Positions 3,366 through 14,770 of a DNA stretch of 64,000 nucleotides are shown here, one piece after another (position 1 is the first letter of the stretch; each line of letters starts with the position of its first letter). The position numbers and the translations under genes were made by a program. Below the pieces are notes generated by a model. The model was given only the letters and a program-made list of their open reading frames with translations. It was not told where the DNA came from and made no database searches. Source of the DNA: a bacterium (GTDB lineage Bacteria; Muiribacteriota; UBA6191); NCBI GenBank assembly GCA_036339875.1, contig JAYZAC010000095.1:10046-74045 (forward strand), in the 5' to 3' direction.

Positions 3366-4082
3366 ATGGATGAATTGTTTTTATTATATGCCGCATGCCT
3401 ATTTCTGGGCTCGGGACTATTTATGTACTACTATCCAATCTATACCATTGCAATGCTCGTCGCAACATTAGGATTGAGCTGGCGATGGTGGTCTTCATAT
3501 CAATCAAGACTAGCATTTCAAGAAGAGAAAAAGCGACGGTTAGAATTAATTGGGAAGCATCCAGAGATTGCTTCCGTTTATATCCCAGACTTTGAAAAAG
3601 ATATTGATCAGAAAATAAAAAAACTAAAGACAGACTTAGAAGAAAAAGGTCAGAGTCAAGTCTTAATGATGCTGGAATCGATTGAGACAATGTTGCAAGA
3701 ACGAGTTATCCCAAAAAAAACTAGTCTGAAAGAAACGCTAGACAAATATGTAACAACCAATCATCTAGTGCTCATAGAGGAGCTAAAACACCAAAGAGAA
3801 AAACTCAATAATAACAATGATGATGAAATGGAAACTATCATTAAGCAAACCATAAGAAATCTCGAAGAGAAGCAACAAATAATGGAAGATTCTAAGAAAG
3901 AACTTATCTTTTTCTATAGCCAGCTAAAAAATATTTTACAGCAGTTGGAAAACATGAGCTTAAAGTCATCTTTGCTAGAAGAAGATAACCAACTTTTCCT
4001 TGAACTGAAGCAAAACGTTAATGAAGCCTTCGAAGGTTTTTCTGACGCTAATTCTCTGTTAGACGATATGTCAAAGCTCTAA
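3366..4082 (+). CDS. hypothetical membrane-anchored coiled-coil protein
   Basis: Two N-terminal hydrophobic helices, then a charged helical region rich in E, K and Q. Divergent from the cyclase gene. The stop overlaps the convergent gene at 4079. Confidence 0.45.
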   Translation: MDELFLLYAACLFLGSGLFMYYYPIYTIAMLVATLGLSWRWWSSYQSRLAFQEEKKRRLELIGKHPEIASVYIPDFEKDIDQKIKKLKTDLEEKGQSQVLMMLESIETMLQERVIPKKTSLKETLDKYVTTNHLVLIEELKHQREKLNNNNDDEMETIIKQTIRNLEEKQQIMEDSKKELIFFYSQLKNILQQLENMSLKSSLLEEDNQLFLELKQNVNEAFEGFSDANSLLDDMSKL

Positions 4083-13029: not shown

Positions 13030-14770
13030 CCTCTAGACTTTCGGATGAATCAATCGTTTCAATTACCCAGCTTTTGAGAATCACGTTAAATTCTGGCTGC
13101 AAAAATTCCTCAAGACTTTGACCACCTGCTTCGCGAAATTCATCATTAGGATCAACTCCATTTATAATTAGATCTTTAGGTATGAAATTCATATTAAGAG
13201 CATCTGCCACCAAATTGTGCGTTAAGTCAACATCAAAACTGCCAAGGTCTGCCCAATTATCTCGAAAAGCTTCCTTATCTGTTTTAAGGCCATTTTGAGT
13301 ATAAAGAGCAGCATCCACCTTAGGTCTGGGATCAGGGTCCTGCCCTCCGCTTTCTGACCAATCATTATCTGGGTGTGGTTTTATAATAATATGTCCGGTC
13401 TTTCGAAATGAGGGATGATTAGTGGGGGTAAAATTAGACTGTTCTCTATTTGGATCCTCAAACGCTAGAATATTCCACAACGATGGATGACCGGCTGTGT
13501 CCACAGGTAAAGCGCTCAAACTCCCTCCAACGTATACATTTCCTTGCACAACTAATACTCCAACGCCTTTGTACCAACCCTCGACGAAAACATCACCTCT
13601 AACAAAGACAATCCCATCTACATTAATTGGATTTCTCAAATCGTGTTGCCGAGAACGAGGTCCATAGCGATTTCCATCAAATACCGGAGCTCGGCGCCAA
13701 TCACCGTAACCATACAGCGGTAAAACATTGTTATACCGGACCGAATTATAACCATTTTCACCTTCAAAAATAATATTTTTGAAATAACGGTTGTCTCTTA
13801 CACTGCCACCAACAGGGTTATAGCGTTGTGGTTCAAGTCTTACTCTAGCTAAGGTTTTATAGAACTCTAAAGGTCTTAAATTAATTTGCTCATTTGTCCA
13901 AAAATTGTGACTGGGAAAAACTTTAGTTGAGTATTTCTCCTTCACTTCTCGACCAAAAATTTTGAATTTTCTGAAGATCCCAAAACGCTTATATTCAACC
14001 TGGTCTGCATCCAAAAAATCTACGCCTCCATCAGCAAGGCCTTGAGTATTTGGAGGATGATCCATGTAATAGTACTCTTGCCATGTTAATTCGCCCTTTT
14101 CAATCATCCGACGCTTATTATAATCAGAAAGCTCAGCGGTAATACCGTTTTCGACGTAAACGTCTCCTCCCATTACGTTCAGGTCACTGGGGTCGAAGTT
14201 ATCCTCAAAGTTGTAATTCAGATGCTCTTTATCTCTAAGGAAAAGAGAATGCTCGGGTGCCACTATACCTAAATTAACTGCTCGAACAGCATAAACTGCC
14301 AACACCTGCTTTTTTACAATTTCTCCAAGAGAGGTTATGTAAATACCTCGTGATTGTATTCTAACCTCTCCACTGTATACACCCATATCAGGAAATGGAG
14401 ATGGAGTTGGTTCGTAATTTACTTTTAATTCAATATCATAAGTTCCTGAGGATTCTCCCATTTCACGAATCTCATCTTTTGCTAAAACTGGTATAGGAAT
14501 ATCCGATTCTAACTCCTCTTTCATTGCCTCCAACATCTTGCTATTCGTCTCCAAATCACTTTTTAAGTAAAATAAAGCTTGCTCTACACCGGATTCAGCA
14601 ATCTGCTCTGCAATAGAATAATCAACAAACTTGTTAGTTAGCTTATGTTCTGTCTGAACCATAAATATTAGGCTGAATGCAAAAATCAAAACAATCATTG
14701 CAAAAGCCAAGACGAATGGCAAAATGACGCCTCGACGATCACCCAAACAAGTCTTATGATTAAAATTCAT
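13010..14770 (-). CDS. membrane-anchored protein with PilX-N/GspK-like N-terminus (minor pseudopilin-like) and beta-strand-rich C-terminal region
   Basis: ATG with AGGAA RBS. N-terminal RRGVILPFVLAFAMIVLIFAFSLIFMVQTE followed by SIAEQIAESGVEQALFYL, resembling the PilX_N pattern (basic residue, hydrophobic helix, ...E..AE.G...AL). Later V/G-rich repeats (DGIVFVRGDVFVEGWYKGVGVLVVQGNVYVGG). Confidence 0.45.
   Translation of the reverse strand: MNFNHKTCLGDRRGVILPFVLAFAMIVLIFAFSLIFMVQTEHKLTNKFVDYSIAEQIAESGVEQALFYLKSDLETNSKMLEAMKEELESDIPIPVLAKDEIREMGESSGTYDIELKVNYEPTPSPFPDMGVYSGEVRIQSRGIYITSLGEIVKKQVLAVYAVRAVNLGIVAPEHSLFLRDKEHLNYNFEDNFDPSDLNVMGGDVYVENGITAELSDYNKRRMIEKGELTWQEYYYMDHPPNTQGLADGGVDFLDADQVEYKRFGIFRKFKIFGREVKEKYSTKVFPSHNFWTNEQINLRPLEFYKTLARVRLEPQRYNPVGGSVRDNRYFKNIIFEGENGYNSVRYNNVLPLYGYGDWRRAPVFDGNRYGPRSRQHDLRNPINVDGIVFVRGDVFVEGWYKGVGVLVVQGNVYVGGSLSALPVDTAGHPSLWNILAFEDPNREQSNFTPTNHPSFRKTGHIIIKPHPDNDWSESGGQDPDPRPKVDAALYTQNGLKTDKEAFRDNWADLGSFDVDLTHNLVADALNMNFIPKDLIINGVDPNDEFREAGGQSLEEFLQPEFNVILKSWVIETIDSSESLEDEEQDS

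Follow-up and report, generated by a model that had tools for sequence, protein, structure and literature searches.

A lineage-specific cell-envelope gene string, probably of adjoining modules: a candidate ComZ-like pilin, a probable M30-like surface metalloprotease and two pseudo-protease paralogs

Introduction

Lugdulysin and hyicolysin are staphylococcal metallopeptidases of MEROPS family M30, one of the MA(E) gluzincin families; hyicolysin was assigned to subclan MA(E) (PMC3268031). Both enzymes are secreted and soluble. Here we describe a protein related to them, P1, together with the string of genes that encodes it. The string lies in a stretch of 64,000 nucleotides (nt), called the window below, from a marine metagenome-assembled genome (MAG) of the bacterial lineage UBA6191 (assembly GCA_036339875.1, contig JAYZAC010000095.1, positions 10,046 to 74,045). 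Coordinates are those of the window. After tpiA, five minus-strand genes encode in turn G586, G308, P1, P2 and P3. To an earlier note on this DNA they looked like a dedicated cell-surface system with three giant M30-like surface proteins and a PilX-like partner. The public annotation names P1 to P3 "CFI-box-CTERM domain-containing protein"; for G586 and G308 it gives "hypothetical protein".

Three other described systems are close to parts of this locus. The MXAN_6640 family (NCBIfam NF045524) and its relatives sorted by the type IX secretion system (T9SS) are putative HExxH metalloproteases; among the distant relatives of P1 described below, many carry surface-sorting tails. The T9SS-dependent M6-like inactivated metalloproteases (NF052323) are a precedent for dead homologs of surface metalloproteases kept by selection. 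ComZ (PDB 6qvi), a tip pilin associated with competence in Thermus thermophilus, combines a GspK-like pilin domain with a beta-solenoid resembling ice-binding proteins, and such a bulky pilin was argued to fit only at the tip of a filament (PMC6561018).

We favour, at somewhat better than even chances, reading the locus as a lineage-specific cell-envelope gene string made of adjoining modules, not as a demonstrated single machine. All its parts are variants of known families. The first module would comprise tpiA, G586 and G308. By analogy with ComZ and GspK, G586 may sit at the tip of a type IV filament that is assembled by machinery from other loci, with G308 as a putative secreted companion. 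The second module would be P1, probably exported by the Sec pathway and anchored in the membrane through the C-terminal helices of its CFI-box-CTERM domain. At the surface, P1 would expose its M30-like zinc metallopeptidase domain together with two beta-sandwich domains that probably serve in binding. P2 and P3 would form the third module, a presumably translationally coupled pair of ancient P1 paralogs that appear to have kept the fold, retain the anchor and have lost the metal site. Their most likely role is a non-catalytic one, as partners that bind, scaffold or regulate at the surface where P1 is displayed.

Results

P1, a probable metalloprotease

P1 (9654-12029, minus strand; 791 aa) is composed of a predicted signal peptide, an M30-like gluzincin domain (residues ~80-440), two beta-sandwich domains (~438-662), a glycine linker and a CFI-box-CTERM anchor. 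The zinc-binding and catalytic motif HEFQH occupies residues 257-261 (11247..11261, minus strand). The third ligand is Glu277 (11199-11201, minus strand), in the motif WVNEGFSQ. His257, Glu258, His261 and Glu277 are invariant in P1 orthologs, all of which keep HE(F/M/L)QH and the downstream glutamate. The earlier note had missed that P1 is the only one of the three paralogs to retain HExxH.

A sequence search matched residues 146-270 of P1 with lugdulysin (PDB 7bb8) at an E-value of 6.3e-14. An AlphaFold model of P1 was obtained with a mean predicted local distance difference test score (pLDDT) of 73.7. Lugdulysin was the best match of this model in both structure-comparison methods used (Foldseek against 7bb8: E 1.6e-11, TM score 0.64 on the target), and the model suggests that the fold of the lugdulysin catalytic domain is present in P1. 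Structure comparison also showed that the beta-sandwich domains resemble collagenase binding/PPC modules and GOLD-type modules. Besides HExxH and the downstream NE(G/A) glutamate, P1 has in common with lugdulysin and hyicolysin the N-terminal block (N)VL(I/V)YDI.DN...G.(F/Y)IGGYF.P.D. It differs from the staphylococcal enzymes by the two beta-sandwich domains, by the membrane anchor and by the two dead paralogs that accompany it. P1 is thus a probable CFI-box-anchored, M30-like surface metalloprotease with a complete metal site and predicted activity. Some relatives carry two tandem HExxH-positive copies of P1 (L002, 10001-14719; L007, 7356-12367), so that the array counts three to four paralogs.

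The term M30-like holds for the trio. Pfam Peptidase_M30 (PF10460) gave no match to P1, P2 or P3 at E ≤ 0.1. The relationship itself stands on the lugdulysin match of P1 and on a P2 profile that matches lugdulysin at E 1.5e-8 in the search of PDB sequences. For P3, the profile had no direct match among PDB sequences and the tie runs through P1 (97.3% in hhalign). With Pfam and NCBIfam, the protease domains yielded only a weak match of P1 to MXAN_6640 (E 0.041; 13.6 bits for a cutoff of 140). P1 also differs from that family in its tail, which is of the CFI-box-CTERM and not of the T9SS or MXYO type.

An exhaustive phmmer search with the P1 protease domain against 1.84 billion representative sequences retrieved 445 relatives at E ≤ 1e-3, 15 of them at E ≤ 1e-30. 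Sixty-three distant relatives were scanned with Pfam and NCBIfam. PF10460 was matched by four of them (best E 5.4e-7) and NF045524 by 43. A T9SS tail was present in 14 according to the Pfam model and in 18 according to its NCBIfam counterpart. CFI boxes occurred in three of the 63, so the pairing of this anchor with M30-like domains is rare. Because of these scans, we assign P1 to a broad family of metalloproteases that is related to M30, is sorted to the surface and has so far been annotated poorly. The inactivated M6-like model NF052323 was matched by seven of the 63 and by neither P2 nor P3, from which it differs in peptidase family and in sorting signal. Membership of the trio in the M6/InhA family was considered and rejected: PF20773 appeared only in weak, distant matches, one of which is named "immune inhibitor A" in its source. 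Proteins P0068-P0072 (~825 aa, 34-41% identity), from the phmmer search, form a subfamily that is sister to the P1 protease domain. Its members keep HExxH and the family tyrosine discussed below, have no CFI box and end in a conserved AHWIYSL motif.

The P2 and P3 pseudo-proteases

P2 (7249..9483, minus strand; 744 aa) is a full-length paralog of P1 with an inactivated site. The equivalent of HExxH (8902..8916, minus strand) reads R-A-L-S-R: both histidine ligands are replaced by arginines, R190 and R194, and the third-ligand glutamate, Glu210, is kept. The RxxxR pattern is found in nearly all P2-type sequences examined; in L006, L070 and the fragment P0078, the second arginine gives way to tyrosine or lysine. 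The substitution suggests a repurposed site, possibly an anion-binding pocket.

In P3, the entire metal site is gone. Its open reading frame (ORF) spans 4079-7270 on the minus strand (1063 aa) when started at TTG 7270, and 4079..7255 (1058 aa) when started at the ATG at 7253-7255. This ATG encodes Met6 of the longer ORF and is invariant in P3 orthologs; the public record, too, lets P3 begin there. A degenerate M30-like domain (residues ~37-450) is followed by a middle part specific to P3. HExxH is absent from all P2- and P3-type sequences examined. The idea of three proteases is not supported. Since the site losses hold throughout these sequences, the trio consists of one probable protease and two conserved pseudo-proteases.

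The earlier note described the three proteins as homologous along their whole length and quoted shared peptide blocks. The blocks are all present. Whole-length homology applies to P1 and P2, over ~740 columns (BLASTP: 26% identity, E 4e-41; hhalign of the N-terminal halves: E 4e-38), and fails for P3, where it covers the first ~450 and the last ~200 residues only. BLASTP of P3 against P1 and P2 is significant in the CFI box only. Full-length hhalign of P1 or P2 against P3 likewise showed nothing beyond the C-terminal match, and the other blocks emerged once trimmed alignments were compared. In all, the profile comparisons paired P1 147-289 with P3 37-221 (97.3%, E 2.7e-11), P1 344-419 with P3 347-449 (84%, E 8e-6) and P1 570-791 with P3 840-1063 (E 9e-29). 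These blocks are colinear. For ~400 residues of the P3 middle part, no counterpart could be detected in P1 or P2; this part contains a low-complexity acidic stretch rich in Asp, Glu, Asn and Gly (residues ~495-548; 5627-5788, minus strand). A hidden Markov model built from distant relatives only recovered P1 with an E-value of ~1e-42 and P2 with values of 1e-29 to 1e-34; for P3, the value varied among orthologs from 1e-5 to 1.5e-12. Because it matches all three, P1, P2 and P3 share one ancestral domain. In the related genome L015, a 1065-aa protein is intermediate between P2 and P3.

At 744-1063 aa, the proteins of the trio are not giant.

The CFI-box-CTERM module

The C-terminal module that the earlier note saw in the trio is real, and is already catalogued as NCBIfam NF041770, CFI-box-CTERM. 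It covers residues 694-762 of P1 (9744..9950, minus strand), 647-715 of P2 (7339-7545) and 963-1029 of P3 (4184-4384, minus strand). The scores are 61.4, 75.6 and 60.9 bits for P1, P2 and P3, for a curated cutoff of 40. In each of the three ortholog sets, the Cys-Phe, FRD and YY..SP positions are invariant and are followed by hydrophobic helices. The domain itself is no different in P1, P2 and P3 from the catalogued one. A literature search found no paper describing the function of CFI-box-CTERM.

G586 and its companion G308

G586 (13010-14770, minus strand; 586 aa) is predicted to be a large pilin of the ComZ/PilX type. Its AlphaFold model (pLDDT 79.7, predicted TM score 0.76) shows an N-terminal helix of 55 residues together with a small sheet and a beta-solenoid. 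The long helix is predicted at residues 16-71 (14558..14725, minus strand) and is preceded by RRG|VILPF. This N-terminus has no glutamate at position +5 and in this resembles those of GspK and PilX. Structure comparison gave the highest score for ComZ (15.7), followed by ice-binding beta-solenoids (12-13.6), a minor pilin of Streptococcus sanguinis (11.1), GspK/XcpX (6.7-6.8) and Neisseria PilX (5.4). The model thus points to a beta-solenoid inserted into a pilin-type fold of N-terminal helix and sheet.

G586 and ComZ share a predicted hydrophobic N-terminal helix, a GspK-like sheet and a large solenoid of the ice-binding-protein type; neither has an obvious prepilin peptidase site (PDB 6qvi; PMC6561018). 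Identity is only 16% over the aligned part. The two also differ in gene context: comZ lies among pilin genes, with the partner minor pilin PilA2, whereas G586 has tpiA and G308 as neighbours or, in Riflebacteria, a kinase and a sigma-54 regulator.

The label PilX-like given to G586 was right in kind, and ComZ-like is more precise, as the model is closest to ComZ. PilX_N (PF14341) gave sub-threshold matches in 14 of 23 family members (best E 2.9e-4) and did not match the G586 of the window even at E 5 or 10. G586 has no match in Pfam, NCBIfam or PDB sequences, and Pfam at E 10 returned nothing for six orthologs. The best reading is that G586 would be a ComZ-like filament tip protein served by machinery encoded elsewhere. 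In many bacteria secG sits beside tpiA; identification of G586 as SecG was rejected on size and fold.

G308 (12103-13029, minus strand; 308 aa) is predicted to be secreted or anchored and its fold is unassigned. A hydropathy scan indicates a Sec-type signal, and there is no pilin helix. No match was found in Pfam, NCBIfam or PDB sequences. Homolog searches retrieved close hypothetical proteins and weak relatives in Wallbacteria-labelled loci; the homologs follow G586 in the core lineage and, at this weak level, in the Wallbacteria-labelled loci.

Arrangement of the locus

The ORF listing agrees with the earlier note that the five genes are consecutive on the minus strand directly downstream of tpiA. 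It also agrees that G586 and G308 overlap by 20 nt and that the P2 stop codon (7249-7251) lies 1 nt from the ATG of P3. What the earlier note had overlooked is that tpiA (triosephosphate isomerase; 14779-15558, minus strand; 259 aa; Pfam TIM, E 1.4e-87) is only 8 nt upstream of G586, as the first gene of the string, and that a strong hairpin stands before tpiA, not after it. This terminator-like element (13 pairs and a T run; 15572..15600, minus strand) separates tpiA from an upstream 411-aa gene and likely marks the start of a transcription unit at tpiA. The remaining gaps are 73 nt between G308 and P1 and 170 nt between P1 and P2 (9484..9653, minus strand), the widest junction of the string and the one that is broken in L006 and L071. 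A promoter scan gave matches no more numerous than in shuffled sequence; for this reason, no promoter is claimed. No sigma-54 promoter was found by eye in the gap between P1 and P2. In a simple hydropathy scan, all five proteins have an N-terminal hydrophobic segment, and P1, P2 and P3 also have C-terminal hydrophobic helices, in line with the earlier view that the five are exported or anchored.

Conservation across lineages

The core lineage consists of MAGs labelled Candidatus Cloacimonadota, UBP17_UBA6191 or "uncultured bacterium". In this lineage the order is an M48 peptidase gene, a ~400-aa gene, tpiA, G586, G308, P1 in one or two copies, P2 and P3. Beyond P3 come a ~240-aa gene on the opposite strand and then a HEAT/guanylate-cyclase gene. 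The genes are clustered and not scattered in the core lineage, as the earlier note had expected. The ~20 kb of housekeeping genes that flank them are equally collinear, and the adjacency therefore carries little weight. The whole string is conserved in one candidate-phylum lineage only.

Of all genes in the string, G586 is conserved best (57-83% identity, compared with 31-61% for P3) and reaches 59 species-level genomes. The gap between tpiA and G586 (14771-14778 in the window; also loci L008, L009, L020-L025 and L060) is 2-49 nt as called across the core lineage and Wallbacteria-labelled MAGs. In the Wallbacteria-labelled loci, the coupling of tpiA with G586 is kept and a G308-like gene comes next in four of them. 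The trio was not seen in the little sequence available downstream, as most contigs stop shortly afterwards; in L008, the next feature is an rRNA operon. In Riflebacteria/Ozemobacter, no tpiA, G308 or trio gene was found within 10 kb of G586. There, the genes immediately after G586 encode a HisKA kinase and a sigma-54 response regulator, and an overlap of 4 nt is frequent; this holds for 21 loci (L029, 11779-14710; L010, L027, L030-L033, L035, L039, L043-L045, L047, L049, L050, L052, L053, L055, L057, L058 and L069). This layout recalls a pilin-PilS-PilR arrangement.

Within the trio, P2 and P3 either overlap or are separated by 1 nt, whichever locus is considered. P1 and P2 are separated by 105-170 nt where they adjoin. 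In L006, a response regulator gene on the opposite strand is inserted between them. In L071 (1717-8988), a 295-kb metagenome contig, P2-P3 stand immediately behind an F-type ATP synthase operon and the downstream neighbours are kept. These breaks argue for at least an internal promoter at the junction of P1 and P2. A second contig from the same sample as L071, L007, ends just after two P1 copies.

Discussion

The claim of a dedicated five-gene system or operon could not be upheld. Since the string breaks up outside one lineage and P2-P3 stand behind ATP synthase genes in L071, a single dedicated system is not shown, and what looked like such a system is better read as modules. Several observations nevertheless weigh against a reading as separate modules, or against the roles that we propose for their parts. 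All six genes are co-directional in the window, and a consensus terminator scan found no terminator-like site in the intergenic gaps from tpiA to the end of P3, which makes one long transcript possible. As the hairpin lies upstream of tpiA and none is found in later gaps, a single unit, if any, would begin with tpiA. The order G586-G308-P1-P2-P3 recurs in the core and UBA6191-like lineages wherever the contig reaches far enough, with P1 identity going down to ~40%, and a functional link of the pilin pair with the trio is still conceivable. No pilin or pilus family turned up in the cluster or among those window proteins that were scanned. All P1 and P2 orthologs have an arginine (R344 in P1) in place of a tyrosine that is nearly invariant in the wider family and kept in outgroups; this also separates P1 from lugdulysin and hyicolysin. 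According to the chain numbering, the replaced residue would be lugdulysin Y315, which along with one other residue is mutated in the inactive crystal form 7bb9. Because P1 carries this arginine, its activity is not assured. Finally, the structures used are predictions with pLDDT of 74-80, and signal peptides and topology come from a crude hydropathy scan that does not fix cleavage sites.

One alternative is that the five genes, or six with tpiA, encode one surface apparatus, in which a G586-tipped type IV filament and G308 would work with an anchored complex of P1, P2 and P3, co-transcribed from a tpiA promoter. Its role could be attachment to proteinaceous particles or prey and their digestion. 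The shared strand, the tight spacing, the position of the only hairpin and the order kept where contigs are long enough are all as this would predict. The same genomes, however, keep the order of their flanking housekeeping genes as well. G586 also occurs without a nearby trio in Wallbacteria-labelled and Riflebacteria loci, and the antisense gene of L006 and the ATP synthase genes of L071 interrupt the string. We consider a single apparatus unlikely; as an integrated whole it is possible, with adjacency as the evidence in its favour, and our estimate for it is low to very low. An elaborate form of this idea would join a ComZ-like tip and a secreted partner to a hetero-complex of CFI-box-anchored protease and pseudo-proteases, with the arginine pocket of P2 receiving an anion or ligand and expression coupled to glycolysis through tpiA. 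We hold it for improbable; if true, it would be a hitherto undescribed surface apparatus of an uncultured candidate phylum. Substrates of type II secretion systems are often proteases, and P1, P2 and P3 could accordingly be cargo of a type II secretion-like pseudopilus tipped by a GspK-like G586, the adjacency then reflecting a secretion-substrate relationship. The hydrophobic CFI-box anchors of the trio are unlike soluble cargo of this kind, and no secretin, ATPase or other pseudopilin was found in the cluster or among the scanned window proteins. There is little chance that this explanation is correct. We give slightly less credit still to the idea that P2 and P3 are decaying, functionless duplicates and the array a relic of the tandem duplication of a surface protease. 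Loss of catalytic residues and the strong divergence of P3, with its low-complexity insertions, would fit decay. Against it, the ORFs of both genes are intact wherever a locus covers them completely, across lineages and at 31-61% identity, with conserved signal peptides and anchors and many invariant residues, including the RxxxR/Glu constellation of P2. A direct-repeat search at the DNA level also gave no sign that the paralogs had recently been duplicated or had undergone gene conversion. P2 and P3 therefore look like retained pseudo-proteases rather than debris.

The reading as adjoining modules gives a concrete identity to the trio hitherto annotated by its CFI box, namely an M30-like surface metalloprotease, probable as to activity, and two conserved dead paralogs. 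It turns a hypothetical protein, G586, into a candidate ComZ-like beta-solenoid pilin of Riflebacteria, Wallbacteria-labelled relatives and the UBP17-like lineage, phyla that have no cultured model. The coupling of tpiA with a pilin gene is a point of real interest for which we found no explanation. The trio offers a tractable case for the role of the uncharacterised CFI-box-CTERM anchor and for why pseudo-proteases persist beside a presumably active paralog. The arginine-for-histidine pseudo-active site of P2 and the tyrosine-to-arginine change common to P1 and P2 also deserve attention.

Neighbouring genes

A search of the whole window with Rfam at the gathering threshold gave no match, hence no tRNA, rRNA or riboswitch. 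The other window genes scanned are housekeeping genes that encode RadA-like, Fmt, RNase R, Ffh, HslU-like ATPase and tetratricopeptide repeat (TPR) proteins. Upstream of tpiA, the conserved ~410-aa protein (15634-16869, minus strand) has an N-terminal signal-like segment and a C-terminal half of low complexity rich in Met, Gly, Asn and Gln, without family match. On the other side, a gene for a 238-aa membrane/coiled-coil protein (3366-4082, plus strand) converges on P3, the ends overlapping by 4 nt. Beyond it lies a gene for a 952-aa protein with HEAT and adenylate/guanylate-cyclase domains (439-3297, minus strand). These two genes adjoin P2-P3 in every locus that reaches past P3, including L071.

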